Part shown: positions 15,524 to 64,000 of the stretch, in pieces
How the letters are laid out: each line of letters begins with the position of its first letter
How positions within the stretch are numbered: the stretch's first letter is position 1
Program-made: the position numbers and the translations under genes
Origin: an uncultured Syntrophaceae bacterium
GTDB taxonomy: Bacteria > Desulfobacterota > SM23-61
Assembly (NCBI GenBank): GCA_964484485.1
Contig: CAZAGD010000065.1
Coordinates: 7,490 to 71,489 of the forward strand
Direction: 5' to 3'
DNA length: 64,000 nt
Notes under the pieces: model-generated
The model's database searches: none
What the model was told of the DNA's origin: nothing
Seen by the model: the letters and a program-made list of their open reading frames with translations, nothing else

Positions 15524-15571
15524 TTAACAAAATTAAATTAGGAGATCAATTCAAATGAGGGGGAGTAAAAA

Positions 15572-16639: not shown

Positions 16640-16645
16640 TTACAA

Positions 16646-24215: not shown

Positions 24216-24242
24216 GCTTACGACACTCCTTTCTTAATCATT

Positions 24243-25010: not shown

Positions 25011-25023
25011 AGATTTGCCCCGC

Positions 25024-25629: not shown

Positions 25630-25631
25630 AA

Positions 25632-27038: not shown

Positions 27039-27053
27039 ACCTGCCGCAATCCA

Positions 27054-29220: not shown

Positions 29221-29222
29221 AT

Positions 29223-30135: not shown

Positions 30136-30159
30136 CTATCCTCCTTAGAATCTACCCTT

Positions 30160-30324
30160 TATCCCCCACTCTCCCCCGTGGTCGGGTGTCAGTAGGACAG
30201 TGTCGGAACGACAATCGTACCGATTCGTCCCGACTCTTATCTACTCTCCCCATGCTTGGGGAGAGGTTTTAGGTTGAGGGGTTAAAAATGGCCAAGGTCA
30301 TTTATTCAATGCTTCTATTAATCA
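30160..30324 (+). mobile_element. MITE family A, copy A1 (5'-truncated; fills the gspF-gspG intergenic space)
   Basis: About 90% identical to 37640-37797 and 44820-44991, including GTCGGAACG...CGTTCCGAC and TCTCCCCA...TGGGGAGA hairpins and the right TIR-like end ATGCTTCTATTAATCA. The left TIR is missing. The element ends at the gspF stop codon. Confidence 0.5.
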
Positions 30325-31539: not shown

Positions 31540-31595
31540 TTAAATTATTTTTTCTATAAAATACTTTAATTTTTTTGATCTGCGCCAGAAATATT

Positions 31596-33308: not shown

Positions 33309-33456
33309 AATTTTGCCCTCCACTCTGCCTGCTATCAATTTCAGAACCTGGCCAAAGAGGGCAGGGTAATTTTGGGTTAGATTATATAATAATAATCGGC
33401 AGAAAAAAATATTAAAATTACTATTTTTATGCCGCAAAGGACCGGTTTCCATCTTC

Positions 33457-40338: not shown

Positions 40339-41101
40339 AACTCTTCCCCAAATAAGCTTCGATGACCCTTCTATCTTTTCCTACATCTGCTGGCTTTCCT
40401 TCCGCGATTTTTTGACCATAACTCAAAACCATCACTCTTTGCGGCAGCTCCATGGCTACTTTCATTTTATGTTCAATCAATACAATAGTAATCCCCTGGT
40501 CATTGATCCTGGCAATTAAGGAGATGAGGTCGTTTATCTCCTTAAGGTTGACACCTCCGGTGGGCTCATCTAAGAGAAGTAAGCACGGTTCCGTCGCCAG
40601 GGCCATGCCAATAGATAACCTCTTTTGCGCTTCTTGGGTCAAGGTGCTGGCTAATACATTTCTTTTTTCTGTCAGACCTATAAAATTTAATATATCTGCA
40701 GCTTTTTCTTGAGCAATTTTTTCTTCCTCTTGGAAACTACGGCTGTTTATTAAAGTGCCAAGGAGTGGAGCTTTGGCCCGTAAACGACAACCAATTTTTA
40801 TATTTTCCAAAACAGTTTCTCTACCGAATATAGAAGTAATTTGAAAAGTGCGCGCAATCCCTTTTTGAGCTATGGTAAAAGGTTTTAGATGAGATATATC
40901 TTCTCCTTTAAAGGTGATTTTGCCTTTAGTGGGCGCCAAAAAACCCGTAATCACATTGAAGAGCGTGGTTTTCCCTGAACCATTAGGCCCAATGATGCTA
41001 AAAATTTCCCCTTCCTTTACGTAAAAGCTCAAGTCAGCAATAGCGCGCAGACCACCGAAATCTTTACAAAGGCCTTCTACTTCCAGAATCTTCCGGTTCA
41101 T
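40328..41101 (-). CDS. livG: branched-chain amino acid-type ABC transporter ATPase LivG
   Basis: Walker A GPNGSGKTT. LivG-type C-terminal extension. Confidence 0.85.
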   Translation of the reverse strand: MNRKILEVEGLCKDFGGLRAIADLSFYVKEGEIFSIIGPNGSGKTTLFNVITGFLAPTKGKITFKGEDISHLKPFTIAQKGIARTFQITSIFGRETVLENIKIGCRLRAKAPLLGTLINSRSFQEEEKIAQEKAADILNFIGLTEKRNVLASTLTQEAQKRLSIGMALATEPCLLLLDEPTGGVNLKEINDLISLIARINDQGITIVLIEHKMKVAMELPQRVMVLSYGQKIAEGKPADVGKDRRVIEAYLGKSYVA

Positions 41102-42087
41102 TTTCTTGCTTTTAAGAATAAATTAGCGGCCAGGAGATGGACTCCCCCCATGATACCTCCCCGCAAGAAAATAACAATAATAATTAACAAAAACCCATAG
41201 GCGACTAAGCGGGGAAAAGCCATCCCATGTAAAAGTTCGCTAATAACGGTTAAGCTAAAAGCCCCGATTATGGGCCCGGCCATTGTGCCTAAGCCGCCGA
41301 TTAGACAGTAGATGAGGATCTCAAAGGTTACATGGTAATCAGAAATCTCTGGGCTAAGAAAACCTATATAAGAAGCATATAAGCCACCGGATAGGCCAGC
41401 GAAAAACACGCTAATTAAAAATGATTGTAATTTGGTAAATAAGGTGTTAATCCCTAGAGATTCAGCCAACTCTTCATTTCCGCGAACAGCCAGAAAAGAC
41501 CTCCCAATCATAGAATTTACTATTCTTCTAATAATCAGCAAAGTCAAAATTAGGAAGGAAAAAACCAGATAATAATTAGCAGTCATCGTGGTAAAATTAA
41601 TTTCTTTTCCAAATGGGAACGGAATAGGTGTTGGCCTGGGAATGCCCAGCAATCCCCTAACTCCTTCGGTAAGACCCTCCCAGTTTTCGATGATTACGGT
41701 AACGATGACATTGAAACACATCGTTCCTATAGCGTAGTAGGAACCTTTGGTCCGAAAAGCAAGCAGACCAATGAAAAATCCAATGGCCACGGTTATAGAG
41801 CAGGCCATAATTAGGGCCAGCCAGAAATTAATTCCTAACTTTAACATTAATAAACCTGTGCTATAGGCACCAATTCCAAAAAAAGCCCCATGGGCTAAAT
41901 TAACTTGCCCCGTATAACCCATAATAAGATTCATAGAGGCGGCGGCTATTCCCCAAATACCGCACATGATCAAGATATGCATATAAAAACGGCTGCTGAC
42001 GAAAAAAGGTATGGTGGCCACCACTATAATGAAGATAATATAGGCCAAATTTCTGGAAATGAAATTACTGAATTTTGTTTGCCTCAT
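41098..42087 (-). CDS. livM: Liv-type ABC transporter permease LivM
   Basis: 329-aa polytopic permease adjacent to livH. Confidence 0.8.
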   Translation of the reverse strand: MRQTKFSNFISRNLAYIIFIIVVATIPFFVSSRFYMHILIMCGIWGIAAASMNLIMGYTGQVNLAHGAFFGIGAYSTGLLMLKLGINFWLALIMACSITVAIGFFIGLLAFRTKGSYYAIGTMCFNVIVTVIIENWEGLTEGVRGLLGIPRPTPIPFPFGKEINFTTMTANYYLVFSFLILTLLIIRRIVNSMIGRSFLAVRGNEELAESLGINTLFTKLQSFLISVFFAGLSGGLYASYIGFLSPEISDYHVTFEILIYCLIGGLGTMAGPIIGAFSLTVISELLHGMAFPRLVAYGFLLIIIVIFLRGGIMGGVHLLAANLFLKARK

Positions 42088-42983
42088 TTAGCCCCAAAGA
42101 GTCCCGTTGGTCTTATGGCCAAAACAGTAACCAAGACACCAAAGGAGAAAACTTCGTTATAAGCTGTACTGATATAACCCCCGCTTAGACTTTCCACTAA
42201 CCCTAAAATAAACCCACCTATGATGGCTCCGGGAATACTCCCCATTCCGCCTAAGATAATAATTACAAAAGCTTTAAGGATGACTGGCCCGCCCATTCCT
42301 GGGTAGACTAAATGGATAGGGGAAATTAAAGCGGCAGCTATGGAGGCCAAGCCGGTGCCCAAAGCAAAAACTATCATGCGCACGCGATTTACACTAATTC
42401 CCATGAGCAAGGCGCCTTCGCGATCTTGAGCCGTAGCTTCTATAGTGGCGCCGATGGTAGTTTTTTTAATAAAGAGCTGCAGAAGAATAATTAGCAGGAT
42501 AGTAACGGTGATAATGATTATTCTTTGTAAAGTAATTGTGAGGCCCATTACTTGGAAGGCCTCATAATGAACCGGGGGGAATCTTTTAAAGTCTGGGCCA
42601 AAAATATGTAAAGCCCCATCTACAAATATAAAGATTAGTCCAATGGCGGCTATAAAAGAATTTAAAGGAGATTCTTTGATCAAAGGCCGGTAAACTAAAC
42701 GTTCTACTAACACTCCGATGGCTGCTAAGGCGATCATGGCCAGCATCATGGCCAGCCAGTAATTGAATCCCATTTGGGTGGCCAACAGAAATGTCAAATA
42801 AGCTCCGGCCATATATAAAGCCCCATGAGCAAAATTAGGAATATGTAATATTCCATATTCCAAGGTAAGTCCCAAGGCCACCAATGAATAGATGCTGCCC
42901 AGCATTATGCCGTTTAAAACTTGCTGGATAAACAGCGCCATTTCTGCATCATCTTTTCCATTAAAATTTTTAGTGTAGAGCAA
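42084..42983 (-). CDS. livH: Liv-type ABC transporter permease LivH
   Basis: 299-aa polytopic permease. Confidence 0.8.
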   Translation of the reverse strand: MLYTKNFNGKDDAEMALFIQQVLNGIMLGSIYSLVALGLTLEYGILHIPNFAHGALYMAGAYLTFLLATQMGFNYWLAMMLAMIALAAIGVLVERLVYRPLIKESPLNSFIAAIGLIFIFVDGALHIFGPDFKRFPPVHYEAFQVMGLTITLQRIIIITVTILLIILLQLFIKKTTIGATIEATAQDREGALLMGISVNRVRMIVFALGTGLASIAAALISPIHLVYPGMGGPVILKAFVIIILGGMGSIPGAIIGGFILGLVESLSGGYISTAYNEVFSFGVLVTVLAIRPTGLFGAK

Positions 42984-43075
42984 GGGTTTATCCCTTGCCC
43001 TGGATGAGATAACTTTGAAGTTTATTCTCTTTATTTTTCAAGCAGAGATAAGAAAATTATAAAGATAAATAGATC

Positions 43076-44287
43076 TCACTTCGGCGTCCAAGTAGCGCCA
43101 TACTTTTGGTACCAGGGGCGCGGATCAATATCAACTGGTTTGCCAAATTTTCCCTCATCCACTTCCATGGCGAAGTAACCGGATAAAAATTGCCCTTCTT
43201 TAGTCATGGTATGAATGCCTCGGATAGCATGTTTGCCCACGGGTAGAACTTGCGGCACTGCCTCCATTATTTTATACACATCTGTTACAGTTCCCGCTTT
43301 CTTCATGGCCTCGGCAAAAATATACATAACTTCATAGTTGAAGGCTGATTCGGAAGTGGGAATAGTGTTAAATCTCTCTCTGTGTCTTTTGGAGTAATCT
43401 TGCATAAGCGGCAAAGGCATCATACCCACAGGACATACTCCCGTACTGGGGGAGATTAGTTTGAGTGGGGTTACTTTCTCCATCTCGTCCAGTTTACACT
43501 GGGATCCGAGAACAAAACCGCCCTTAAAGCCGAGTTCTCGCGCTTGCGATATAATCATGGCCGAAGGTTCTGAAGGGCCATAAAGGAAGATACAATCTGG
43601 CTTAGCGGCCAAAACTTTCGTTAGGTAAGGATAAAAGTCGGTCACTTTGGCATAATCAGCCGGGGCGTTAGCCACTATCTGCCCACCTTTGTCTTTCCAG
43701 AGAACCTCAAAAATTTGTTCGGCCAGTTTCCCTGATTCATGAGTACCACAAAGTAAGGCACCTTTGCGCCACCCCTTTTGCCAGCCCAGCTCGATTACTC
43801 CAGAATTATAAAAACCCATGGACATAGGTGCTTTGACCAATAACCTATTCCCCTGCTGCAATACAGCCGGATTATCAGTATAACCATGAATAATGAATTT
43901 TTCTTGTTCATTAAACTTCAGCATCCCTAATATGCCGCCGGCATGGGGACAAAAGATAAAAGGAGGTTTATGCAACTCGATTAAACGCCGGGCGTTGGTT
44001 ACTGTATCAGCCGGTTTATAGCGATCATCTAAGGCTATTACTTTAAAAGTATATTTTTTACCCCCAACGGTAATCCCACCGGCAGCATTTATCTCTTCCA
44101 CGGCCATTTCTAAACCCTCTAAGTTATTTCGACCGTATTTAGCTGCTCCTCCGCTCAAAGGTCCGGTATAGCCCACGTTAATTACATCGGCCAAAACCAT
44201 AGAAAGATTGCCCATAAACGACGTTAAGATAAGAATTATTAAAAAGTTTATAATTTTTTTAAAATTTTTCCCCCCACCCATAACCAT
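43076..44287 (-). CDS. Liv-type ABC transporter periplasmic substrate-binding protein (LivK/LivJ family)
   Basis: 403 aa with a signal peptide and a type I periplasmic binding fold. Confidence 0.75.
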   Translation of the reverse strand: MVMGGGKNFKKIINFLIILILTSFMGNLSMVLADVINVGYTGPLSGGAAKYGRNNLEGLEMAVEEINAAGGITVGGKKYTFKVIALDDRYKPADTVTNARRLIELHKPPFIFCPHAGGILGMLKFNEQEKFIIHGYTDNPAVLQQGNRLLVKAPMSMGFYNSGVIELGWQKGWRKGALLCGTHESGKLAEQIFEVLWKDKGGQIVANAPADYAKVTDFYPYLTKVLAAKPDCIFLYGPSEPSAMIISQARELGFKGGFVLGSQCKLDEMEKVTPLKLISPSTGVCPVGMMPLPLMQDYSKRHRERFNTIPTSESAFNYEVMYIFAEAMKKAGTVTDVYKIMEAVPQVLPVGKHAIRGIHTMTKEGQFLSGYFAMEVDEGKFGKPVDIDPRPWYQKYGATWTPK

Positions 44288-51348: not shown

Positions 51349-51840
51349 CTAATCAAAATTAAAATCGACGGCAATTTTAATAATTTTGCTGGCGGGCAAA
51401 TTTAAGATTTTTTTAACCCCTGTTCGCCGCGATATCTCTTTTATAATTTTTTCAATTTTTTGCGCCGTTGGCGCAATCAAGGTAAACCAAATATTATAAT
51501 CTCCTGCCCGTTCATAATTATGGGTTACGCCGGGATAGGAATTAACTACTTCAATAAATTTCGGCAATTTCGCCATCGGTACTTTGGCCGCGCAAAGAGT
51601 GGAAGTAAAGCCCATAGCGCGGGCACTAAAACTGGCTCCCATCCGGCGAATAATGCCGGCAGCATGCATCCTCTGCACACGAGCAAAAATTTCCTTTTCT
51701 TTCAACTTTAATTTGCGAGCTAAAGCTAAATAAGGGCGGTGGGTTATGGGAAAATTTCTCTGGATTTCCTTAAGGATGAGCCGATCTTTTTGATCCAGAG
51801 TTAACCCTGGATCCACCGCAGATTCTTTCTTTCTTTCCAT
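51349..51840 (-). CDS. Lrp/AsnC-fold protein resembling siroheme decarboxylase subunits (AhbA/AhbB, NirD/L/G/H family)
   Basis: Start moved to the MERKK Met (51840), 14 bp after the upstream radical-SAM stop. The ORF-track start would overlap that gene by about 100 bp. HTH, then GVTHNYERAGDYNIWFTL, which I recall as typical of the NirDLGH/AhbAB lineage rather than classical Lrp. Confidence 0.5.
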   Translation of the reverse strand: MERKKESAVDPGLTLDQKDRLILKEIQRNFPITHRPYLALARKLKLKEKEIFARVQRMHAAGIIRRMGASFSARAMGFTSTLCAAKVPMAKLPKFIEVVNSYPGVTHNYERAGDYNIWFTLIAPTAQKIEKIIKEISRRTGVKKILNLPASKIIKIAVDFNFD

Positions 51841-51854
51841 CTTTGTCTTTTCTT

Positions 51855-53093
51855 TTAGCTTACGCAAATCAGTCCTTGATCGCGCCATTTGATAATCTCC
51901 CATGCCAAAACTTCCTGTTCTTTCCACCAACCATCTAATTTCTTTTTCTTTTCCCAATCTATTAAAGTATTTTTAGTCTGGTCATCTATGAGAGAAGGCT
52001 CTTTTAAAAAAAGGGGCGTACCGGGCAAAGGAAGAAAAGAATGAGCGTGAATCTTTGCCCCATACTCTTCAATCATGCGGGCAGCCAAATTTAAAGAAAG
52101 GAGACGATCAGTGCTACTCTCCTCCGGAAATCCAAAAATAAAATCAACATGAGGTGAAAAGCCTGCTTGACAAATTAACCTGACAGCTTCTAAAGCTCTT
52201 TCCGCAGTGTGTCCCCGATGCAGTTTTTGTAGTAAAGCATTACTTCCGGATTGCCCTCCTAAAACAATAGTGCGGTTATGACAAAATTTTTTAATGAGCT
52301 CCAGAACCTCCTTGGAGACCCAGTCTGGCCTTACTTCGGCGGGGAAAGAGCCGAAGTTAATCTTAGTATACCCAGCCTCTTGGCAAGCAGTAAACAGTTC
52401 TTTTAGGGCTGTTAAATTCGGTTGATGATCTTCTTTGGCTCCATAAGCCAAAGCGTTGGGCGATATGAAGGAGCAGCGTTGGTAACCATAGGTGGCTGCC
52501 TTTTGCAATTGTTGACTAAGGTTATCTAAATTTCTATGGCGCAGTGAATTTCCAAATATTCGAGGGGTCTGACAAAATGTGCAGCCATACGGGCAGCCGC
52601 GCGTAATTTCCAAGGGAGCAAAAAAATTTTCTTCGCTATAGAAAGGAGGGAAAGAAGGAACACACCATCCTTTTTTCTTGGGACGAACGATCCTTTCTGT
52701 TGGCAAACGTCCGGCAAAAAATTGCTCCACAAAATCCGGCCAGGTCTCCTCTGCTTCCCCCCAAAAAACGAAATCGAACCCTAATTTTAAAGTCCCTTGG
52801 GGATCAGCAGTAGCATGCGGACCGCCAGCAATAATGGTGATCTCATCCCGAAAATTTTTCCGCAAATCTTCTATCTCTTCCTCGACTTTCATTAACCAAG
52901 GAGTCATAAAAGAATATCCAATCAAGGTTATCTTAGGTAGTATTTTTTCTTTTATATCTTTCAGAGATTCTGCGGTCGTAATTTTTATTTTTCTGGTCCA
53001 GCCTCTTTCCTCCAGTCCCCCCATGAGGGTTGGTAGAGTATATCTATTCTCTCTTGTCCTCCGCAAGATCAAGGTTGGTTTTTCTACTTTCAT
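51855..53093 (-). CDS. B12-binding-domain radical SAM protein
   Basis: N-terminal Rossmann-like cobalamin-binding region. CPYGCTFC is a Cx3Cx2C radical SAM cluster. 412 aa. Confidence 0.7.
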   Translation of the reverse strand: MKVEKPTLILRRTRENRYTLPTLMGGLEERGWTRKIKITTAESLKDIKEKILPKITLIGYSFMTPWLMKVEEEIEDLRKNFRDEITIIAGGPHATADPQGTLKLGFDFVFWGEAEETWPDFVEQFFAGRLPTERIVRPKKKGWCVPSFPPFYSEENFFAPLEITRGCPYGCTFCQTPRIFGNSLRHRNLDNLSQQLQKAATYGYQRCSFISPNALAYGAKEDHQPNLTALKELFTACQEAGYTKINFGSFPAEVRPDWVSKEVLELIKKFCHNRTIVLGGQSGSNALLQKLHRGHTAERALEAVRLICQAGFSPHVDFIFGFPEESSTDRLLSLNLAARMIEEYGAKIHAHSFLPLPGTPLFLKEPSLIDDQTKNTLIDWEKKKKLDGWWKEQEVLAWEIIKWRDQGLICVS

Positions 53094-54865: not shown

Positions 54866-55315
54866 TTAACTCCTCTTGATCATAAGCGTCTTGTACCCCG
54901 ATTGGACTACTACCTCTCCTTCTTTTTTTATGATTTGTAAAAAGAGCTTAATTATCCCCCTATCTGGTTTGCTCTTACTGGGAATCTTTTCTACTACTTT
55001 AGCTTTTACATAAATAGTCTCACCAAAAAATAAGGGGGCCTCAAATTTCCACGAATCGATACCTAAAAAAGCAATTGCGGTGCCCTCCAGATATCCGGTG
55101 CGGAACAGTAAACCATGGGAAATAGCCAACCCTAACAATCCATGGACAATCCTTTGTCCAAATTGACTATTTTTCATAAAAGCTTCACTGGTATGTAGTT
55201 CATTATAATCTCCGCTCATAGCTGCAAACATGACTACATCCGTCTCCGTAACAGTTCTACTGGGAGTAATAAATTCTTCATTTAGCTGCCATTCATCAAA
55301 TAATTTTCCAGTCAT
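54866..55315 (-). CDS. MaoC-like (R)-specific enoyl-CoA hydratase / hot-dog fold dehydratase
   Basis: 149 aa. NELHTSEAF...RIVHGLLGLAISHG is the MaoC/PhaJ hot-dog motif. Confidence 0.75.
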   Translation of the reverse strand: MTGKLFDEWQLNEEFITPSRTVTETDVVMFAAMSGDYNELHTSEAFMKNSQFGQRIVHGLLGLAISHGLLFRTGYLEGTAIAFLGIDSWKFEAPLFFGETIYVKAKVVEKIPSKSKPDRGIIKLFLQIIKKEGEVVVQSGYKTLMIKRS

Positions 55316-55412: not shown

Positions 55413-56414
55413 TTATTTTCTCTTTTCTAAGGCGGCAATTAATTTCGGCAGAATTTGGCGAAAATCAGCCACTATACCCAAGTCAGCATTCTGGAAAATG
55501 GCCGCTTTAGGATCATTATTTATGGCAATTATAGTCTTGGCCTCTTGAATACCAACCACATGCTGAATAACGCCCGATATGCCCACCCCAATATATAACT
55601 TGGGCCGAATAGTTTTCCCGCTTTGGCCGATCATCTGTTCTTCCCTTATCCACCCCTCATCTAAGGGTGGACGTGTTCCTCCTACAGTTCCCTGTAAGAC
55701 TTCAGCTAACCGTTCGACTAGTTTCCAATCTTCTCGATTACCGATACCTGCTCCCCCGGCTACAACTATTTCTGCTTCTTCTAATGAACAAGTAAATTCC
55801 TTAGCCCGCTCAACTTTAAGGACCTTCTGGCGTAAATCGGCGGGGTTTAATTCCACAGGTACCTCTTCGATTACAGGAGTTTTTTCATGCCCAATTGCTC
55901 GACGGTAGACTCCAGGACGCACGGTAGCCATCTGGGGAAGATGACGCGGACAAAGAATAGTGGCCATCACTTGGCCGCCAAAAGCAGGCACCACTTGTTT
56001 GAGTTTCCCTTTTTCATCAATATCCAATTGCGTACAATGAGCTGAAAGTCCCGTACGAACGCGCGCCGCCAGCCTGGCCGCCAAATCTGATCCCACAGTA
56101 GTAGCCGGCAAAAGAAATACTTCTGGCCTTTTTTTCATAATTAACTGACTGATAACTCTGGTATAAGGAAGGGTTAAATAGTTTTCTAAACAGGGATGAT
56201 CGGCTAATAAAACTTTTTCTACCCCAAACGAGAAAAGAGAATAAGCCAAATCTCTTATCTTATGCCCCAGAAGAATAGCTATAATCTCTGCTTGATCCAG
56301 TTTCTGCGCCAGAAAACCGGCAGCCTGCAGAAGTTCAAAAGAAACTTCCGCAATACAACCCTCTTGTTGTTCTATAAAAACCCAGATTTCTTTTTTCGCC
56401 TGCAGATCTTTCAT
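55413..56414 (-). CDS. etfA: electron transfer flavoprotein alpha subunit
   Basis: 333 aa. FAD-binding C-terminal domain (PKLYIGVGISGVIQHVVGIQEAKTIIAINNDPKAAIFQNADLGIVAD). Confidence 0.85.
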   Translation of the reverse strand: MKDLQAKKEIWVFIEQQEGCIAEVSFELLQAAGFLAQKLDQAEIIAILLGHKIRDLAYSLFSFGVEKVLLADHPCLENYLTLPYTRVISQLIMKKRPEVFLLPATTVGSDLAARLAARVRTGLSAHCTQLDIDEKGKLKQVVPAFGGQVMATILCPRHLPQMATVRPGVYRRAIGHEKTPVIEEVPVELNPADLRQKVLKVERAKEFTCSLEEAEIVVAGGAGIGNREDWKLVERLAEVLQGTVGGTRPPLDEGWIREEQMIGQSGKTIRPKLYIGVGISGVIQHVVGIQEAKTIIAINNDPKAAIFQNADLGIVADFRQILPKLIAALEKRK

Positions 56415-56449
56415 TTTTCTCGTCCTTCACCCAACTCTTTCCTTTCATT

Positions 56450-57241
56450 TTAGCCAATGGCCTGCCTTATCTTTTGGATGACTTCGGCAATTAACTCGTC
56501 TGGCTCCCCTTGGAGAATTACTCCTTTTCTTTTCATTTCCGGCATAAATATTTCCCCCGTCTGCGTGGGGGAACCAGAGAATCCAACTTCCTCTGGCTTT
56601 ATCCCTAACTCGCTAGCTCCCCAAATTGTCAGGGGCTTGTTCTCTGCCTCTAAGACGCCCATAAGAGAGATGAATCGGGGAGTGTTTATTTCTCGAGCCA
56701 CGGTGATTAGGGCCGGCAAGGAAGTCTCTAATATTCGGCAGCCGCCCTCCATCAAGCTCCGCGTATATAAAGCTCCTTCTTCTGTAAATTCTATGGCTAC
56801 GGTGCGGGTAATATGGGGAATGTCCAAAAATTCAGCTAACTGGGGACCCACATGGCCGGTAGATCCGTCTAAGCTCCATTCCCCGCAAATAATTAGGTCA
56901 AATTTGCCGATCTTTTTAATAGCTTTACTGAGCGCATAAGAAGTGGCCCAGGTATCAGATCCCGCAAAGGCGCGGTCGCTCAATAAATAAGCTTCATCCG
57001 CCCCCATAGCCAAAGTTTCCACTAAATTATCTCTCGCCCCTAGGGGGGCCATGGCTATGGTTCTAACTTTACCGCCATATTTTTCTTTAAGACGCAAACC
57101 TTCTTCCAAGGCTCGCTTATCCAAAGGCCCCAGAACACTGGGAATGCCCTCCCGCCGCAAAGCTTTGGTTATCGGATCCAATTGGATGCGCTCCCAGAAT
57201 TTTGGGTCTGGGGCCGGTTTTACACAGACAACAATATCCAT
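56450..57241 (-). CDS. etfB: electron transfer flavoprotein beta subunit
   Basis: 263 aa. Starts MDIVVCVKPAPD. ETF-beta fold. Confidence 0.85.
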   Translation of the reverse strand: MDIVVCVKPAPDPKFWERIQLDPITKALRREGIPSVLGPLDKRALEEGLRLKEKYGGKVRTIAMAPLGARDNLVETLAMGADEAYLLSDRAFAGSDTWATSYALSKAIKKIGKFDLIICGEWSLDGSTGHVGPQLAEFLDIPHITRTVAIEFTEEGALYTRSLMEGGCRILETSLPALITVAREINTPRFISLMGVLEAENKPLTIWGASELGIKPEEVGFSGSPTQTGEIFMPEMKRKGVILQGEPDELIAEVIQKIRQAIG

Positions 57242-57330
57242 TATTATTTTCTCCGCCTCAAGCGATTTTTTAACTTGGGGAGGCCGAGTCGAAACAATGC
57301 TCTAACCCAGCCTCTGCGCCAAGACCTCTT

Positions 57331-58473
57331 TTATTTAAATGAGGTAAGGGCTTTCCGAGCCATTATAATCCGCTGAATTTCTGAAGTTCCCGCCGAAGCA
57401 ATTAAAATTTCCGCATCTCGATAGTACCTTTGCACTGGGTATTCCATCATATAACCATAGCCACCGTGAATATCTACGGCCTTTTTCGCGCAACGTACAG
57501 CAGCTTCAGTAGCATAGAATTTGGCTAAAGCCATTTCTGTATCACAACGCAACTTTTGATCACGTAGCCAAGCAGCCCGGTAACAAAGTAAGCGGCTGGC
57601 TTCTAAATCAACATAAATATCAGAAATCAACCATTGAATTCCTTGATGCTGACTTATAGGCTTGCCGCCTAAGATCCGTTCATTGGCAAACTTTACGGAA
57701 GCTTCTAAACATGCCTGAATGAGCCCTAAACCACATCCGGCCATGCCGGCGCGGCCTACTTCGCTAATTCCGGCCATACATATTTTTAAGCCATCACCTT
57801 CGTTGCCTAAAAGGTTGGCGCGGGGAACAAGACAATTCTCCATGACGATCTCGCCCGTATTACATCCATGGAGACCAAATTTCTTCTCTTTACGCCCCAC
57901 TTTAAAACCGGGGAAGGATTTTTCGACTAAGAAGGCGCTAAATCCCTTAGGGCCTTCTCCAGTCTTCGCCATAATGGTTATGGTATCCGCCACATGTCCG
58001 TGAGTGATAAAACATTTTCGTCCGTTTAATACATAATGATCGCCTTCAAGTTTAGCCGTGCTCTGAATTCCGGTAGGATCTGATCCACCAGTGGCTTCAG
58101 TAACCGCGATAGTGGCCAAGCGTTCGCCCTTGGCCAGACTGGGCAAATATTTTTTCTTTTGCTCCTCATTGGCAAAATCTGTAAGCGGAGCAATGCCTAA
58201 ATGAAAAATCTGCATGGCCATGCCAATGGAGGCAGAAACCCGGGCTAATTCCTCGATCATGATCATCCGCGCTAAGTTGCCCAGGTTTGTTCCACCATAC
58301 TCTTTGGGAATCATTATGCCCATATAGAGCTGCTTGCCCATCTCCCGGTAAAGATCCCAAGGAACTTCATCAGTTTCTTCCATATGGGGAATGCGCGGAG
58401 CGACAGCCCCCTCAGCAAATTCTCTAATGCTCTTGCGCAATAATTCTAATTGGGGTGATAATTGGAAATCCAT
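57331..58473 (-). CDS. acyl-CoA dehydrogenase (short/medium-chain type)
   Basis: 380 aa. ACAD N-terminal, middle and C-terminal domains. Catalytic Glu region (YATEAAVRCAKKAVDIHGGYGY...E). Confidence 0.85.
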   Translation of the reverse strand: MDFQLSPQLELLRKSIREFAEGAVAPRIPHMEETDEVPWDLYREMGKQLYMGIMIPKEYGGTNLGNLARMIMIEELARVSASIGMAMQIFHLGIAPLTDFANEEQKKKYLPSLAKGERLATIAVTEATGGSDPTGIQSTAKLEGDHYVLNGRKCFITHGHVADTITIMAKTGEGPKGFSAFLVEKSFPGFKVGRKEKKFGLHGCNTGEIVMENCLVPRANLLGNEGDGLKICMAGISEVGRAGMAGCGLGLIQACLEASVKFANERILGGKPISQHQGIQWLISDIYVDLEASRLLCYRAAWLRDQKLRCDTEMALAKFYATEAAVRCAKKAVDIHGGYGYMMEYPVQRYYRDAEILIASAGTSEIQRIIMARKALTSFK

Positions 58474-58604
58474 TTGGTCCTCCTTTATAATTTTTTTCAG
58501 AGAAAAATTTTCTTCTTCTTGGAAAATGAATTAAATTTATACCATTTTACTTATTTGCTGACAAGCTTTTTGGTGGCGGGAAGTAAAAAATTTTTGCGTA
58601 ATAT

Positions 58605-59468
58605 TCAATCTGGGGTTTTTTCTGATTCTTTCTTTCGCCGGCGATAAAAATGATAACCATAGCTCCCTGCGGCCACAATCACTGCCATTACAATACCAAT
58701 CCCGTAAAAAAAACGCATGATATAGAAAACTGGTTGGCTCTGCCAAGAAACTTTAAAATGGATAGGACCTAAGAGCGCAGGTGTAGCGTATGATTTGTCA
58801 TGGCACTTTACGCATGTACTCTTCCCTACTTCTTTTTGGGGATGGCCGGTATTCTCGGGATGACAGTTAGCACATATCTGGGTATCGTAACGATAATTCA
58901 AGTTGACCTTAGGATGCCCTTTTAAGCGGTAGGAGGCTAAAGTGGCCAGAAGACCTGGTACAGGTTTGGCTTCCTCATGACATTTGGCGCAGGCCTGGGG
59001 AAGATTTTGGGCGGATACAGAAGATGCCGGGTCGTTAATCTTGCGCATATAATGGGCTGTATGGCAATCGGCACATTGCGGAGCATTTTCCAGGCCACTG
59101 GCCCACATCATCCCATGGGTGGTTTTTTTATAAGCCTCCACCGCCTCTTGGTGGCATTGAGCACAATCAACTTTCGCAAATCCCTCGGCCGGATGAGCAT
59201 CCGGACGGGCTTCCTGATGACAATCTGTACAACCCATTCCCCCTGCCCCATGCACTGAGGCTCGGAAGGATTCGGCATTTACGTATAAAGAAAGGAGAGA
59301 ACCATCTTTCTTTCCCTTACTGAGCCGCGGATTTTGGTGGCATTTTAGACAAGCAGCGTCATCTGCTCCTTGAACCGGCCCTCCCCAGATGAAGAGCAAA
59401 ACTCCCCAGATCAGCAAAATTAAATATTTTTCGAAGCCTTTTCTTTCCTGACCTTTTCTCATTTTCAT
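58605..59468 (-). CDS. membrane-anchored heptaheme cytochrome c
   Basis: Seven CxxCH motifs (CLKCH, CTDCH, CAQCH, CADCH, CAKCH, CANCH, CVKCH). N-terminal signal sequence and a single C-terminal TM helix (FYIMRFFYGIGIVMAVIVAAG). Confidence 0.75.
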   Translation of the reverse strand: MKMRKGQERKGFEKYLILLIWGVLLFIWGGPVQGADDAACLKCHQNPRLSKGKKDGSLLSLYVNAESFRASVHGAGGMGCTDCHQEARPDAHPAEGFAKVDCAQCHQEAVEAYKKTTHGMMWASGLENAPQCADCHTAHYMRKINDPASSVSAQNLPQACAKCHEEAKPVPGLLATLASYRLKGHPKVNLNYRYDTQICANCHPENTGHPQKEVGKSTCVKCHDKSYATPALLGPIHFKVSWQSQPVFYIMRFFYGIGIVMAVIVAAGSYGYHFYRRRKKESEKTPD

Positions 59469-59501
59469 TTCCTACCCTTATTTACACCCACACCCCGAAG
59501 G

Positions 59502-61460
59502 CTAATCCTTTTTCTCTTCTAAAGCTTGGACAACTAATTCGGTTATGTCATACGCAGCCATTTTCTCTTCCAATTCTTTTTCTTTTATGCCGTCGCCAAT
59601 CATCGTTAGGCAATAAGGGCAAGCCGTAGCTACCAGAGAAGCTCCCGTACGCAAAGCCTGGTCAGTACGCATCTGGTTGATGCGTGTTCCCAGTTTCTCC
59701 TCCATCCACATGCGCCCGCCACCAGCTCCGCAGCAAAAGCTGGTGAGACGATTCCGTTTCATTTCGACGAGCTGCAGTCCTGGAATAGACCTTAAAACTT
59801 GCCGAGGTTCTTCGTAAACTTCATTGGCGCGCCCTAAATAACAGGAGTCATGATAAGTCAAAACTTTTTCCACGGGCTTATTTAGGTTTAAACGGCCCTC
59901 CCGAAGAGCTTCCGCCAGAAATTGAGTGTAGTGCATTACTTCATAGTGGCCACCGAATTGCGGATATTCATTTTTTAAAGTATTGAAGCAATGGGGACAC
60001 ATGGTCAATATTCTTTTAACTTCATAGCCGTTCAATACTTCGATATTGGCTTGGACCAACGTTTGGTACAGATATTCGTTGCCAAGGCGTCGCGCCGAGT
60101 CGCCACAGCAACCTTCTTCTGTACCCAATATAGAAAATTTTACACCCATGGCTTTTAAAATCTTAACCAAAGCAGTGGCCACTTTTTTATTCCGGTCATC
60201 AAAACTCCCCGCACACCCTACCCAGAATAAAAGTTCAACTTCTTTATCTTCAGCCATGGTCGTTAAATCCAGTCCTTTGGCCCATTCCGCTCTTAAACCC
60301 AGGCCAACTCCCCAAGGATTGCTATTATTTTCCATATTGCGGAAAACGAGCTGTACTTCGGAGGGGAAGCGGCTTTCCATGAGCACGAGATAGCGGCGCA
60401 TTTCTAAAAATTTATCCACACAGGGAATGAAAACCGGACAGACCATAGCACAAGCTAAACAATTAGTACAAGACCAGATCACCTCTTCGGCAAGGACATC
60501 GCCGATGAGTTTTTTCTCTTCCGCAGCAGTTCCCTGGCCAAGTTTCTTAATCCGCCCTTTCTCTTCCATATAGGCCCTTAAAGCATCCCAATTTTTTTTG
60601 GGCGCTAATGGTTTGCCACTAACGGCCGCTGGACAATGATCTAAACACCTACCGCATCTCGTGCAGGCATCCATATCAAAAAGTTGTTTCCACGTTAATT
60701 CTTCGATCCGCGAGACTCCGAAGGTTTCCGCTGTCTCGAAATCAAGGATGGGCGGCATAGCGCCTTTGGGTTTTAAGGAACGCATGTAGATATTAGCCGG
60801 CCCGGTAATTATATGGAGCATACGAGAGTAAGGGATGAAGGCCACGAAACCCAATACTAAAAAGAGATGCAGCCGCCAAAAAAGACGATGCCAGAAAATT
60901 TGGGCATTATCGGTTAGACCCCGGAATAAATAAGAAAGACTTAAACCGATGGGGGACCAATTCGCCCAATCGGGTTCACTGCGGGCTATACGCAGACCCT
61001 CCACACAGAAGCCTAATCCGAAGATGCCCAAAAGTAAGAGGAGGGCAACTAAGTTTCCTAAGCTACTATCATAGGTGAGGTTTTCAGGCTTTTGCCCATA
61101 GCGCCGATAAAGGGCCAGCAAAGTTCCTATCAACCCTAAGCAACCAATTAAATCAAAAAACAAGGACAAGGGATAGGCTAGGGCCGTAGGTAAAGTGAAA
61201 TTAAGTTGGGTTATAACAATCACGATGAAAGGAATAATAAAGGCATAAAAAATGAAGAGGTGCATTAACCCGGGATAAATTTCCCGCAAAATTCTTTTCT
61301 GCCCGAATACATAAGCCCAGATCAGTTTGAGGCGCTCTTTAGGTTGATCCGTCCTTTTTTCCGGTTTACCTATTTTCCAAAGCTTATAGCGGCGGTAAAA
61401 TCCATAAATGAATACAACCGCCGTAATGAAGATCAGCAATAAATCAAAGGAACCAGCCAT
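59502..61460 (-). CDS. membrane-bound FeS oxidoreductase (NarI-like cytochrome b domain fused to HdrD/DsrK/GlpC-like 2x[4Fe-4S] + 2xCCG domains; Etf:quinone oxidoreductase-like)
   Basis: 652 aa. Five N-terminal TM helices with conserved His. CTRCGRCLDHCP and CTNCLACAMVCP ferredoxin motifs. CCGDSARR and CCGAGGG are CCG-domain signatures. Confidence 0.75.
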   Translation of the reverse strand: MAGSFDLLLIFITAVVFIYGFYRRYKLWKIGKPEKRTDQPKERLKLIWAYVFGQKRILREIYPGLMHLFIFYAFIIPFIVIVITQLNFTLPTALAYPLSLFFDLIGCLGLIGTLLALYRRYGQKPENLTYDSSLGNLVALLLLLGIFGLGFCVEGLRIARSEPDWANWSPIGLSLSYLFRGLTDNAQIFWHRLFWRLHLFLVLGFVAFIPYSRMLHIITGPANIYMRSLKPKGAMPPILDFETAETFGVSRIEELTWKQLFDMDACTRCGRCLDHCPAAVSGKPLAPKKNWDALRAYMEEKGRIKKLGQGTAAEEKKLIGDVLAEEVIWSCTNCLACAMVCPVFIPCVDKFLEMRRYLVLMESRFPSEVQLVFRNMENNSNPWGVGLGLRAEWAKGLDLTTMAEDKEVELLFWVGCAGSFDDRNKKVATALVKILKAMGVKFSILGTEEGCCGDSARRLGNEYLYQTLVQANIEVLNGYEVKRILTMCPHCFNTLKNEYPQFGGHYEVMHYTQFLAEALREGRLNLNKPVEKVLTYHDSCYLGRANEVYEEPRQVLRSIPGLQLVEMKRNRLTSFCCGAGGGRMWMEEKLGTRINQMRTDQALRTGASLVATACPYCLTMIGDGIKEKELEEKMAAYDITELVVQALEEKKD

Positions 61461-61606
61461 TTTCTCCCTCGATGACCAAAGGCGCTATAGTTTTATCTCA
61501 CCGGTAACTTAACCCACTTGGCTATCTGAGTGGCCTTTAAATGGCTATTAATTCGCCAGCGCCAAAAGAAAATGGCTCTCTATTTGGGAGAGCCATTTTT
61601 CTGTGG

Positions 61607-62599
61607 TTAGCTCTCGGAGAGGAGCTTTTTAAATTCTTCAGTTAAAAGGGGCACAACTTTGAATAGATCTTCTACAATTCCGTAATCGGCTTTTTGAAAG
61701 ATAGGAGCATCTGGATCTTTGTTGATGGCCACAATTACCTTAGAAGATCCCATGCCAGCGAGATGCTGAATTGCGCCAGAAATCCCGCAGGCAATGTAAA
61801 GATTAGGAGTGACTACTTTCCCGGTCTGCCCCACTTGATCGGCGTGATCGCGCCATCCAGAATCTACGGCCGCCCGCGAAGCCCCCACGGTAGCATGGAG
61901 AACGTCGGCCAATTCTTCTAAGATCTTGAAATTCTCCGCTCCTTTCATCCCTCGGCCTCCGGAGACGATGATCTCAGCCTCGGTCAAATCAACTTTTGCT
62001 CCGGCAGTTTTAACTACTTCCACAATGGCGGTGCGCAGACTGGAGGAGTCTACTTTGGCTTCTACTTTAATTACCTCCCCTTTTTTACCAGATTCTGGGG
62101 GCACCATAGGTAGAACGTTGGGACGCACCGAAGCCATTTGCGGGCGGGAATTAGGACAAACCACTTCGATGAAAGCTTTGCCAGCATAAACGGGCCTTTT
62201 GGCTAATAATAAGCCTTCTTCATTGAGGCTTAAACCTGTACAGTCTGTGGCCAGCCCAGTCTGCAGGCGCGTCGCTAATCGAGGAGAAAGGTCTTTACCC
62301 AAAACTGTAGCTCCACAGAGGAAAATTGAAGGCTGATGTTCTTTGAGCAGGTTGGTTATAATGGTGGCATATGGATCCGTAGTGTATTGCGCTAAAATTG
62401 GATCGTCCACGAAATATACTTTATCGGCGTATTCTGCCAAACGCCCGGTCAGTCCTTCTATACCTGATCCAAGGAGAACAGCCACTAGTTCTTCGCCAAG
62501 TTTTTCAGCCATCTTCTTCCCTTGACTTAGAAGCTCAAAAGTAACTTTGCGAATATTTCCTTCCTTAACTTCGGCAAATACCCAGATTCCTTTGCCCAT
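61607..62599 (-). CDS. etfA: electron transfer flavoprotein alpha subunit (second copy)
   Basis: 330 aa. IACGISGAIQHLAGMGSSKVIVAINKDPDAPIFQKADYGIVEDLF. Confidence 0.85.
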   Translation of the reverse strand: MGKGIWVFAEVKEGNIRKVTFELLSQGKKMAEKLGEELVAVLLGSGIEGLTGRLAEYADKVYFVDDPILAQYTTDPYATIITNLLKEHQPSIFLCGATVLGKDLSPRLATRLQTGLATDCTGLSLNEEGLLLAKRPVYAGKAFIEVVCPNSRPQMASVRPNVLPMVPPESGKKGEVIKVEAKVDSSSLRTAIVEVVKTAGAKVDLTEAEIIVSGGRGMKGAENFKILEELADVLHATVGASRAAVDSGWRDHADQVGQTGKVVTPNLYIACGISGAIQHLAGMGSSKVIVAINKDPDAPIFQKADYGIVEDLFKVVPLLTEEFKKLLSES

Positions 62600-62671
62600 A
62601 AATTGTCTCCTTCTTTAGCTATATAAATTGCTAATTTTTTTCTCTGGTTGATATCTTTTCTCTGTCCAGCA

Positions 62672-63463
62672 TCAAACAACTTTGGCCTCTTCGCGCAAAA
62701 ACTTGACTAAATTTTTAACACAATCTATCAGTTCCCCTGCAATAATCTTCCCCGGGGGTCGGGAAGGTGGGGGAATGTACCTTAAAATTTTTGTCTTTGA
62801 CCCGGCCGCGCCTACCTCTTCCGCACCCAAACCAAGGGCAGCTAAATTAATCGGTTTGACTTCTTTTTTCTTTGCTTTCATGATCCCCGGGAGAGAGGCA
62901 TATCTCGGCTCGTTCAAACCCTTCTGACAGGTAAAGACCGCGGGAAGTTTTACTTCCACTACTTCTTTCCCCCCTTCTACTTCTCTTTCTACTCGTGCTT
63001 TCTTTTGCTCAGCATTGATTTCTAATTTAGTGATGAGGGTTACATGGGGTAAATCCAAGAATTCGGCTAAAGAGGGTCCTACCTGAGCCAAGTCATCGTC
63101 GACAGCTTGCTTTCCGCAAAGAATTAGGTCGAATGGTTCTTTTTTGATTACTTCAGCCAGTGCTTTGGCTGTGGCAAAGCCGTCTGCTCCTTCAAAGGCT
63201 GGGTCATTTAAATGTATGGAACGATCAGCTCCCATAGCTAACCCGGTGCGCAAAGCTTCTACTGCTCTCGCCGGCCCCATCGTAATTAGAACTGCTTGAC
63301 CACCGAATTTTTCTTTAATACGTAGGGCTTCTTCCACGGCGAATTCGCAATAAGGGTTCATTACGTACTTAATATCATCGGTCACGATGCCCGAACCATC
63401 CGGCTTGATTTTAATCAAAGTTTCTGTATCCGGCACTTGTTTAAGACAAACAATAACGTTCAC
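62672..63463 (-). CDS. etfB: electron transfer flavoprotein beta subunit (second copy)
   Basis: 263 aa. Starts MNVIVCLKQVPDTE. Confidence 0.85.
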   Translation of the reverse strand: MNVIVCLKQVPDTETLIKIKPDGSGIVTDDIKYVMNPYCEFAVEEALRIKEKFGGQAVLITMGPARAVEALRTGLAMGADRSIHLNDPAFEGADGFATAKALAEVIKKEPFDLILCGKQAVDDDLAQVGPSLAEFLDLPHVTLITKLEINAEQKKARVEREVEGGKEVVEVKLPAVFTCQKGLNEPRYASLPGIMKAKKKEVKPINLAALGLGAEEVGAAGSKTKILRYIPPPSRPPGKIIAGELIDCVKNLVKFLREEAKVV

Positions 63464-63522: not shown

Positions 63523-64000
63523 TCAAACTGGCCAGAGATTATTCTGGCGCGCTTCTTCAGTCATCATTCCTCTGATGAAAACATCACTTATCTGCCACAC
63601 TGCGTCATTTATGCTGTGTTTCTTTTTCGTGGACAGAACCCAATAGCGAGCCATCTCATCTAAAGCCCCAAAGAAGGCTCTCTTCATTATTCCTGGAGTT
63701 AGATCCTTGCGGATTAACCCTTTTTCCTGACCTTCCACAACAATAGCACGGATGAGGTTTAAGTATTCGATAAAAGGTTTATTCACATACTCCTTCATAA
63801 ATTTGCTGCTCTGGCGCACTTCTACCCCCAAAACCTCAGCTAACTGCTGTTGCTTCTGTAAAATAGAAAGATGGACCTGGGCAAATTTTCTAATCTTCTG
63901 TAAAGGATTTTTCTCTTTTTCCAGCTCTTGGCGCATATTTTCCACTATTTGCCCGAATTCCTCCTCAAACAAGGAGATAAGGATATCGTCTTTATTCTTG
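63523..64000 (-). CDS. TetR-family-like transcriptional regulator (C-terminal ligand-binding part; 5' end beyond window)
   Basis: The ORF stays open to the window edge (..KNKDDILISLFEEEF..). The all-helical C-terminal domain is typical of TetR/AcrR regulators of fatty-acid degradation genes. The HTH would lie outside the window. Confidence 0.4.
   Translation of the reverse strand, partial: KNKDDILISLFEEEFGQIVENMRQELEKEKNPLQKIRKFAQVHLSILQKQQQLAEVLGVEVRQSSKFMKEYVNKPFIEYLNLIRAIVVEGQEKGLIRKDLTPGIMKRAFFGALDEMARYWVLSTKKKHSINDAVWQISDVFIRGMMTEEARQNNLWPV

Follow-up and report, generated by a model that had tools for sequence, protein, structure and literature searches.

Recurrent pairing of a short-loop ETF:(methyl)menaquinone oxidoreductase with an anchored heptaheme cytochrome c suggests an outward route for beta-oxidation electrons in uncultured Thermodesulfobacteriota

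Introduction

In a 64,000-nucleotide stretch of DNA from an uncultured Syntrophaceae bacterium (GenBank assembly GCA_964484485.1, contig CAZAGD010000065.1, positions 7,490 to 71,489 of the forward strand; called the window throughout), the gene for a homologue of the electron-transfer flavoprotein (ETF):(methyl)menaquinone oxidoreductase (EMO) is followed directly by the gene for a heptaheme cytochrome c. The gene, domain and motif content of this pair, its topology signals, its conserved and recurrent adjacency and a correlated remodelling of the oxidoreductase lead us to favour, with moderate confidence, a cytochrome bc-like EMO-cytochrome complex that would link ETF (the pair encoded upstream, EtfAB-2) to periplasmic redox partners. 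An EMO with its own outward-facing seven-heme cytochrome suggests an undescribed route by which anaerobes may export electrons from the oxidation of fat. EMO/EtfD proteins, cytochromes attached to a cytochrome b and bifurcating Bcd/Etf modules are all known kinds, and what is new is that a short-loop EMO recurrently comes with a heptaheme cytochrome dedicated to it; no c-type cytochrome partner is mentioned in the EMO/EtfD literature that we examined, and targeted literature searches found no such pairing. The locus had been singled out in an earlier reading made from the letters alone and without database searches (the sequence-only reading), which the present analysis followed up.

Results

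The EMO-type oxidoreductase and its cytochrome

The oxidoreductase gene (59502..61460, minus strand) codes for 652 residues: a NarI-like cytochrome b domain of five helices forms the N-terminal part, and two [4Fe-4S] motifs and two complete CCG motifs with ten Cys follow (Pfam CCG 2.2e-38 in two stretches, Fer4_8 4.3e-11, Nitrate_red_gam 2.8e-6). For numbering according to the EMO of Syntrophus aciditrophicus (SaEMO), two proteins of 706 residues from a Syntrophales-named group (P0219 and P0220), which carry all 11 residues named in the SaEMO preprint at their published positions, were used as proxies. The window EMO is 51% identical to P0220 (11 of 11 published SaEMO residue positions) and matched the solved mycobacterial EMO (PDB 9ojn_A) with E=1.8e-115, in agreement with the sequence-only reading, which had likened the core of acyl-CoA dehydrogenase, EtfAB and FeS oxidoreductase to the one that carries Etf:menaquinone reverse electron transport in syntrophic butyrate and benzoate oxidisers; this core is the EMO system of syntrophs. 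We classify the oxidoreductase as a member of the characterised EMO/EtfD family (former DUF224). As in SaEMO and mycobacterial EtfD/MsEMO, one chain combines a NarI-like b part, an HdrC-like part with 2x[4Fe-4S] and an HdrB-like CCG part, the gene stands directly after etfB-etfA, and the heme ligands and the calcium-binding Glu are kept: H67, H198 and H216, which do not vary among about 100 homologues, align with SaEMO H87, H233 and H251, and E154 corresponds to the calcium-binding E187 of SaEMO. The FeS Cys are found at positions 266/269/272/276 and 331/334/337/341, and those of the CCG motifs at 416/451/452/488/491 and 540/576/577/614/617. Around residue 491 the window EMO has CPHCF where the Syntrophus-numbered proxies have CPHGY (G535), so that all ten CCG Cys are present; CPHCF also occurs in every other short-loop EMO and in a cytochrome-less locus, L083, that is described below. 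In SaEMO the lack of this Cys accounts for an unusual [4Fe:5S] cluster, and for the window EMO a canonical second non-cubane [4Fe-4S] cluster is predicted.

The cytochrome gene (58605..59468, minus strand) starts 33 bp past the EMO stop, with a Shine-Dalgarno-like GGTAGGA in the gap, and codes for 287 residues (Pfam Cytochrom_c3_2 2.4e-14). Since the protein contains exactly 7 CxxCH motifs and 7 further invariant His, it is predicted to be a bis-His heptaheme cytochrome. Its hydropathy profile shows a signal-like N-terminal segment (residues 11-35, ending ...PVQG before ADD, Sec-type) and a C-terminal hydrophobic helix (residues 246-271) followed by the basic tail RRRKK, and the heme domain is therefore predicted to lie in the periplasm, rather than in the cytoplasm, tethered through the C-terminal helix with the tail on the cytoplasmic side. 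Seven hemes and a C-terminal anchor are also what the sequence-only reading had described. Within the anchor helix region, H272 of the window cytochrome is not conserved, and there is no invariant His beyond H237. The motif LYGxG of this helix, considered as a sign of specific packing, was dropped as general evidence, since it is kept in the close family, L095 and L013 and missing from L166, L167 and L164. A PDB search with the cytochrome profile gave no close structure, the weak matches being MtrA (6r2q, 7e-5) and ACIII ActA (6lod).

Distant relatives of the cytochrome, 24-41% identical, were found in Calditrichota, Bacteroidota, Chloroflexota, Ignavibacteriota, Acidobacteriota, Sedimenticola and others, and are of two kinds: in the first, the multiheme domain is fused to a membrane domain of 4-6 helices, and in the second, a C-terminally anchored multiheme protein is followed by a gene for a 4-5-helix protein. 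One of them, encoded on L073 from a Desulfuromonadales metagenome-assembled genome (MAG), has 620 residues, 9 CxxCH and 6 hydrophobic segments and fits the published description of CbcL, its resemblance to the window cytochrome being weak (34% over 100 residues). According to published work, CbcA is a seven-heme periplasmic cytochrome with a C-terminal transmembrane domain and the partner of the diheme cytochrome b CbcB, CbcL is a multiheme c domain fused to a cytochrome b, and both homologues and fusions of cbcBA occur in the same phyla as the distant relatives of our cytochrome; a His in the anchor helix of CbcA has been proposed to ligate heme b. By that description, the window cytochrome is like CbcA of Geobacter sulfurreducens in its seven hemes, its signal peptide, its C-terminal anchor and its place beside a membrane cytochrome b. 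Unlike CbcA it has no conserved His in the anchor helix, and unlike in CbcBA and CbcL the b partner would be the NarI-like domain of an ETF-oxidising enzyme, not a quinol oxidase of the HydC/FdnI type. Judging by these resemblances, the cytochrome belongs to a wider group that is characteristically attached to a membrane cytochrome b, which suggests that the NarI-like domain of EMO is its b-type partner.

The sequence-only reading had likened the locus to the Tmc, Hmc and Qrc complexes of sulfate reducers, and this likeness holds in part. As in Tmc, Hmc and DsrMKJOP, a periplasmic multiheme c, a NarI-type b and a cytoplasmic, HdrD-like CCG part together span the membrane, and Hmc/DsrMKJOP-like sets do occur in distant loci (see below), but the likeness is one of architecture only. 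In the locus studied here the b and CCG parts are fused and the cytoplasmic partner is ETF, not DsrC. Unlike in TmcABCD and HmcABCDEF, the cytochrome is C-terminally anchored, and it is unrelated to TmcA or HmcA, its relatives being of the Geobacter CbcL/CbcA kind and not TmcA, HmcA or QrcA. DsrJ is a triheme protein anchored by an uncleaved signal peptide. Membership of the oxidoreductase itself in the Tmc, Hmc or Dsr families was rejected because its NCBIfam scores fall far under the cutoffs (TmcB 71.3 against 735 bits, HmcF 62.4 against 750, DsrK 69.9 against 400).

Conservation of the gene pair

One genome per species was scanned for the close cytochrome family (56-90% identity), which was found in 11 MAGs named Thermodesulfobacteriota, 'Syntrophaceae' or 'Deltaproteobacteria'. 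Wherever the contig allows, the order TetR-EtfB2-EtfA2-EMO-cytochrome-acyl-CoA dehydrogenase-EtfB1-EtfA1 is kept in these 11 species-level genomes, an arrangement that is far from chance. The cytochrome directly follows EMO in L001-L005 and L007-L011; L006 begins at the cytochrome, so that adjacency is not assessable there. EtfA2 is encoded directly upstream of EMO in all relatives. Among contigs reached via EMO homologues, the cytochrome again follows EMO in L081, L082, L085 and L086, and it does so in diverged lineages as well (L095/P0091, L012, L014, L013, L164/165, L166 and L167). These lineages, at least six in number, have EMOs that are only 41-53% and cytochromes that are 32-42% identical; a 4-bp overlap joins the EMO stop to the cytochrome start codon in L095, L012, L013 and L014, and the two genes as called in L166 share 11 bp. 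The cytochrome is thus present in all assessable loci of the clade and recurs in distant lineages, rather than being absent from all orthologous loci.

An exhaustive profile-free search for cytochrome homologues among 1.84 billion representatives returned the close family as one 50%-identity cluster, beside about 15 others of the same 260-320-aa architecture. Eight of the nine clusters or lineages examined are found in an EMO locus, counting L169, where EMO is present and not adjacent; in the ninth, L168, the cytochrome gene is the last of the locus and no EMO precedes it. The distribution was also viewed from the side of EMO in a sample of 80 diverse metagenome EMO loci, in which the cytochrome is limited to the lineages named above. 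About 55 loci whose downstream sequence is long enough to assess have no multiheme gene nearby. In L083 (5403-13302) the order carB-purF-TetR-EtfBA-EMO-acyl-CoA dehydrogenase-EtfBA is preserved with the same flanks and without a cytochrome, and the EMO is a long-loop protein of 696 aa that is 62% identical to the window EMO; this locus offers a natural 'minus cytochrome' comparator. We regard the cytochrome, on the evidence of gene content, as clearly an optional add-on to EMO, yet not an incidental one.

These distributions bear on the simplest alternative, namely that the cytochrome has no functional relation to EMO and is a periplasmic cytochrome of some other pathway that was inserted beside EMO and inherited with it. 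Its absence from the otherwise identical L083 locus, its lower conservation relative to the neighbouring genes and the L168 cytochrome without an EMO upstream would fit such an origin. Against it stand the adjacency in at least six diverged lineages, the 4-bp overlaps of start and stop and the parallel remodelling of EMO set out below, and we consider this explanation, which is already disfavoured, very improbable indeed.

In three of the distant lineages the cytochrome is encoded together with further redox proteins. L012 (4525-17288) contains genes for a thiolase, HADH, an acyl-CoA dehydrogenase, EMO, the cytochrome, an FeS protein, NrfD, an NrfH-like cytochrome, a second acyl-CoA dehydrogenase, methylmalonyl-CoA mutase and MeaB; the added subunits are a TtrB/DsrO-like four-cluster protein (itself devoid of a Tat signal), a DsrP/NrfD-like membrane protein and the NrfH-like cytochrome, so that an Hmc/DsrMKJOP-like set stands inside a beta-oxidation/propionyl-CoA cluster. 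L166 (200-6506) encodes EMO, the cytochrome, NrfD, an FeS protein resembling TtrB/DsrO and a molybdopterin subunit that bears a Tat signal, and L169 (346-8146) encodes EtfBA, the cytochrome, an FeS protein, NrfD, a Tat-signal molybdopterin subunit and an NrfH-like cytochrome, followed by EMO. The molybdopterin subunits of L166 and L169 are nearest to the thiosulfate reductase PhsA and to QrcB, under both cutoffs (for L169, 306 bits against 694 for PhsA and 191 against 440 for QrcB), and these loci may specify a periplasmic sulfur-compound reductase fed by beta-oxidation or a Qrc-like quinone reductase. By their predicted subunits, the sets of L012, L166 and L169 resemble Hmc, DsrMKJOP and Qrc, and the cytochrome is co-encoded there with redox complexes that face the periplasm. 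FeS proteins of the HmcB/DsrO type and NrfD proteins of the HmcC/DsrP type were found only in these three loci, and none is encoded in the window or in close relatives.

In L095 (38-1273) and on the P0091 contig, genes for a sensor kinase and a sigma54-dependent response regulator precede EtfBA-EMO-cytochrome, and a gene for an aldehyde:ferredoxin oxidoreductase comes after them. The regulator pair recalls the sigma54-dependent control of Geobacter cbcBA by BccR.

Remodelling of the outer face of EMO

All 21 cytochrome-adjacent EMOs have 128-130 residues between the first and the second heme ligand, and the 64-66 residues ahead of the first ligand include Asp at position 6 (21 of 21). The window EMO conforms to this, with a spacing of 130 between His1 and His2 and 66 residues before His1, whereas in assessable cytochrome-less EMOs the spacing is 132-158 and the N-terminus is usually longer. 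Relative to SaEMO, the cytochrome-adjacent type is without residues 1-19 (the periplasmic 'REvFWN' segment), its helix II is short by 2 residues around A101, and its loop between helices II and III is 7-12 residues shorter than in cytochrome-less EMOs. The window EMO likewise lacks the N-terminal periplasmic segment and has a helix II that is 2 residues shorter at A101; its II-III loop falls short of that of the SaEMO proxies by 7 residues, and the protein differs from them also in the exchange of H109 for Asn, in that of G535 for Cys and in the dedicated heptaheme cytochrome gene downstream. In the cytochrome-adjacent EMOs as a whole, the position of H109 is occupied by Asn, Thr, Gln, Gly or Ser. 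In the window EMO it is Asn87, and E22 is replaced by Gly3, with Asp6 one helical turn further in. The preprint on the cryo-electron microscopy structure of SaEMO describes the region that is trimmed here as a flexible cover of the distal twin heme, and E22 and H109 as lining the modelled methylmenaquinone pocket.

A neighbour-joining tree of EMO was built from the cytoplasmic domains only and is independent of insertions and deletions in the membrane domain. Cytochrome-associated EMOs fall at three separate positions in this tree with cytochrome-less ones between them, the cytochrome-less L083 and L087 nesting between the window clade and L095, and the association of EMO with the cytochrome has therefore been gained or lost more than once.

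The trimmed region is also where a quinone-linked alternative has to be weighed. Here EMO would still be an ordinary ETF:(methyl)menaquinone oxidoreductase and the cytochrome a quinol:cytochrome c oxidoreductase acting via the b domain of EMO or the quinol pool, so that electrons would always travel via quinone and the pair would merely bring quinone reduction and quinol oxidation close together. Such an arrangement would agree with the retention of H67, H198, H216 and E154 and with the ability of Asp6 to replace, possibly, E22 of SaEMO; moreover, relatives of the cytochrome work with quinol-oxidising b cytochromes, CbcBA and CbcL of Geobacter act as quinol:cytochrome c oxidoreductases, and L012, L166 and L169 add NrfD-type, quinone-interacting subunits. 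However, it is just the part forming the modelled quinone pocket and the distal-heme cover in SaEMO that all cytochrome-adjacent EMOs have lost, and the separate NrfD module of L012, L166 and L169 would be redundant if EMO kept a quinone site of its own. We judge this alternative unlikely, if by no means negligible, and continue to favour a direct EMO-cytochrome complex.

The two Etf pairs and the remaining genes of the locus

Nine genes, all on the minus strand (open reading frame listing together with Pfam and NCBIfam scans), make up the locus, and every gene named by the sequence-only reading is present among them. Its statement that the interval 55413-63463 includes the MaoC and TetR genes did not hold, as both lie outside it (54866-55315 and from 63523 onward). 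It had placed the cytochrome between EtfAB-1 and the oxidoreductase; the cytochrome gene directly follows that of the oxidoreductase and does not adjoin EtfAB-1, as the acyl-CoA dehydrogenase gene stands between them. A second complete EtfAB pair is encoded on the other side of the oxidoreductase, as had been stated, and consists of EtfB2 (62672..63463, Pfam ETF 6.9e-51) and EtfA2 (61607..62599, 330 aa, Pfam ETF and ETF_alpha), the beta and the alpha (FAD) subunit of the putative EMO-docking ETF; it is no duplicate of EtfAB-1. The two pairs are diverged (B subunits 36%, A subunits 41% identical) and of different classes, for which reasons a recent duplication was rejected.

The class assignments of the Etf proteins rest, as far as motifs are concerned, on alignment to solved structures. 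The five best PDB matches of EtfB1 (56450..57241) are all bifurcating proteins (CarD 3.9e-61, C. difficile EtfB 5ol2_B, LctB, FixA and A. fermentans 4kpu_B) and span 1e-61 to 1e-48, non-bifurcating ones scoring 1e-23 or weaker. EtfB1 keeps SDRAFAGSDTWATS (the SDRAFxGxDTWATS segment) and GSPTQ, aligning with CarD and C. difficile EtfB, and has GEWSLDGSTGHVG where characterised bifurcating EtfBs have GRQAIDGDTAQVG. EtfA1 (55413..56414, Pfam ETF and ETF_alpha) also finds its best PDB matches in bifurcating complexes (CarE 2e-83, 5ol2_A, FixB). At the level of motifs and similarity, EtfAB-1 is of the bifurcating type, with a predicted second (beta) FAD site instead of AMP; the sequence-only reading had asked whether either pair carries this signature. 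Together with the preceding acyl-CoA dehydrogenase (57331..58473, Pfam Acyl-CoA_dh N, M and C domains), it can be described as a Bcd/Etf-like module. This dehydrogenase resembles butyryl-CoA dehydrogenase and acryloyl-CoA reductase, scored under the cutoff against NCBIfam AcrC (380 bits) and GlutCoADH_Des (315 bits) and is 84-98% identical within the clade. The module is like Bcd-EtfAB, CarCDE and acryloyl-CoA reductase in its order acyl-CoA dehydrogenase-EtfB1-EtfA1 and in keeping DTWATS and SPTQ in EtfB1; unlike Bcd-EtfAB and CarCDE, it has the deviating GEWSLDGSTGHVG and stands in one string with a membrane EMO system.

The best PDB match of EtfB2 was human ETF-beta (2.2e-57), with a nearly equal score against CarD. 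EtfB2 has DDD and NEPRYASLPGIMKAKKK in common with EMO-adjacent EtfBs of Syntrophales and with the human AMP-type ETF and is without DTWATS and SPTQ. EtfA2, which has no ferredoxin domain, matched bifurcating CarE best (3e-104). We assign EtfAB-2 putatively to the EMO-docking, non-bifurcating (AMP) type, EtfA2 being nevertheless nearest to CarE. The authors of the SaEMO preprint remark that AMP in SaEtfB resembles a remnant of the bifurcating FAD. Because S. aciditrophicus has a single, non-bifurcating etfAB, the second Etf pair of the window is a real difference from this model syntroph; it is independent of the cytochrome, since the cytochrome-less L083 also has it.

At the upstream end of the locus, a TetR/FadR-like regulator of the YsiA type (63523..63999, up to the window edge) is represented by its C-terminal ligand domain only (Pfam TetR_C_4 4.8e-25). 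Its open reading frame is open at the end of the window, the sole start reported in the list being an internal TTG, and the helix-turn-helix (HTH) domain and the promoter region of the locus fall beyond the window. Against NCBIfam FadR it scored 94.8 bits (cutoff 200); its relatives have 207-244 aa and include TetR_N. An acyl-CoA-sensing TetR/FadR-like repressor probably controls the gene set. The last gene of the string encodes a MaoC-like (R)-specific enoyl-CoA hydratase (54866..55315, Pfam MaoC_dehydratas 8e-25), whose position is not kept in relatives: it is found elsewhere in L011 and L081 and is absent at other loci. Promoter and terminator counts between 54.7 and 64 kb equal the expectation from shuffled sequence and speak neither for nor against a single operon, no intergenic minus-strand terminator being found, and an Rfam scan of the window gave no matches.

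The gene content allows a third alternative, in which the wire would run mainly inward. H2, formate, reduced cytochromes or a partner cell would supply periplasmic electrons, and these would pass through the cytochrome and EMO to ETF, acyl-CoA dehydrogenase and enoyl-CoA. The result would be an enoyl-CoA respiration that generates membrane potential, comparable to the way in which sulfate reducers drive cytoplasmic reductions through Tmc and Hmc. S. aciditrophicus uses EMO reversibly for enoyl-CoA respiration, a Bcd/Etf-type module such as the one present here is typical of reductive crotonyl-CoA metabolism, and the architecture is Tmc/Hmc-like. The FadR-like regulator, MaoC and the thiolase, HADH and CoA-transferase neighbours in relatives, on the other hand, point to fatty-acid degradation, and electron direction is not readable from sequence. 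A mainly inward flow appears quite improbable to us, and in what follows the EMO-cytochrome complex is considered chiefly as an exit for electrons from beta-oxidation.

Elsewhere in the window

The rest of the window contains housekeeping genes, transporters and a type II secretion cluster and gives no direct clue to the terminal acceptor. Two genes about 3 kb downstream of the Etf locus, both on the minus strand, may be relevant to heme supply: one (51349-51957) encodes an AsnC-type protein with the HTH domain of NirD/L-like siroheme decarboxylases (AhbA/B-like, alternative heme synthesis), and the other (51855-53093), whose open reading frame overlaps the first by about 100 bp, a B12-binding radical SAM protein. 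An acyl-CoA synthetase (AMP-binding) is encoded beside a five-gene ABC transporter of the branched-chain-amino-acid type (37965-44287, minus strand), a plausible unit for the uptake and activation of organic acids that could feed the beta-oxidation locus. The secretion cluster (22002-33458, minus strand) looks like a complete type II secretion or pilus-like system, with a GspD-type secretin, T2SS K, T2SS M/PilN/PilM-like proteins, the F and E (ATPase) components of T2SS and two pseudopilins that carry N-methylation motifs. Type II secretion serves to export outer-surface cytochromes in Geobacter and Shewanella. Two sets of TRAP-type transporter genes were found at 10963-18438, one with a 634-aa DctM-type protein and an NMT1-like binding protein (minus strand) and one with DctP-DctQ-DctM (plus strand), separated by a gene for a DUF2848 protein (14450-15244).

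Discussion

We infer a physical complex of EMO and cytochrome, transfer from heme b to heme c, a direction of electron flow, a periplasmic partner and a mode of regulation, of which the electron path would be as follows. ETF (EtfAB-2), reduced by acyl-CoA dehydrogenase, would dock on the cytoplasmic CCG/FeS domain of EMO, and electrons would pass through the four FeS clusters of EMO to the proximal heme b and on to the distal heme site at the outer face, from where they would reach the seven c hemes of the anchored cytochrome. The pared-down periplasmic side of EMO would in this way be served by a dedicated heptaheme cytochrome, whose C-terminal helix would sit in the membrane beside EMO, as cytochrome c1 does beside cytochrome b and CbcA beside CbcB. 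The resulting two-subunit complex would carry electrons outward in beta-oxidation, a direction that the membrane potential favours, and the same wire could carry them inward for the reduction of enoyl-CoA. In distant relatives the periplasmic partner would be the co-encoded NrfD/FeS complex, in some of them together with the Tat-signal molybdopterin subunit. The bifurcating-type module of acyl-CoA dehydrogenase and EtfAB-1 would link turnover of the same acyl-CoA/enoyl-CoA pair to NAD(H) and ferredoxin.

The hemes of SaEMO titrate at -80 and -220 mV, and the membrane potential assists the outward movement of electrons, so that periplasmic acceptors could receive electrons at about -200 mV after a single crossing. 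Such a crossing would cost one charge per electron, where the methylmenaquinone/formate dehydrogenase loop of Syntrophus costs two. We raise, as the sequence-only reading had done for a route that is not purely quinone-linked, the tentative and rather doubtful possibility that the exit is independent of quinone and driven by the membrane potential, running from heme b via the c hemes to periplasmic or extracellular acceptors at about half the proton motive force cost of the Syntrophus loop. Candidate acceptors would be the cytochrome pool, a sulfur-compound reductase, minerals or a partner cell, and, if true, such an exit would connect beta-oxidation in uncultured Thermodesulfobacteriota directly, at the molecular level, with interspecies or extracellular electron transfer by cytochromes.

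Several observations count against a bc-like complex. The window EMO retains E154, every heme b ligand and, close to where helix I ends on the outer side, an acidic residue, because of which it may itself reduce quinone. The margin in loop length is small (130 residues against 132 in the shortest assessable cytochrome-less EMO), the N-terminal lengths of EMOs depend on the choice of start codon, and the neighbour-joining tree of the cytoplasmic domains is rough. SaEMO H109 is missing from several cytochrome-less EMOs too, and its loss was for this reason rejected as proof of a lost quinone site. The cytochrome is less conserved (56-64% identity) than its neighbour genes (74-91%), and neither the window nor the 20-kb loci of its close relatives contain a gene for a periplasmic partner. 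Finally, the AlphaFold2 monomer of the cytochrome, built on an alignment of 22 sequences, is poor (pLDDT 61, pTM 0.44) and confident in the anchor helix alone; a Foldseek search of the PDB with this poor model gave nothing at E<=0.001, and no fold was assigned.

Strict anaerobes that oxidise fatty acids face, as their central energetic problem, the disposal of acyl-CoA electrons of relatively high potential, and the sole mechanism worked out to date is the reverse loop of EMO, methylmenaquinone and formate dehydrogenase of the model organism S. aciditrophicus. The locus described here goes beyond that model in two respects, a remodelled EMO with its own seven-heme cytochrome and a second, bifurcating-type Etf module, and the combination of short-loop EMO and cytochrome is widespread in uncultured Thermodesulfobacteriota of sediments, groundwater and hot springs. 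If the cytochrome accepts electrons from heme b, fatty-acid oxidation in these organisms would be wired straight to periplasmic reductases or to extracellular or interspecies electron transfer, the proton motive force cost of reverse electron transport would change, and a short-loop EMO together with a seven-heme anchored cytochrome would serve as a metagenome marker for such physiology. It would then also be seen how an HdrDE-like module, in parallel with Tmc, Hmc and Dsr, can acquire a c-type output.

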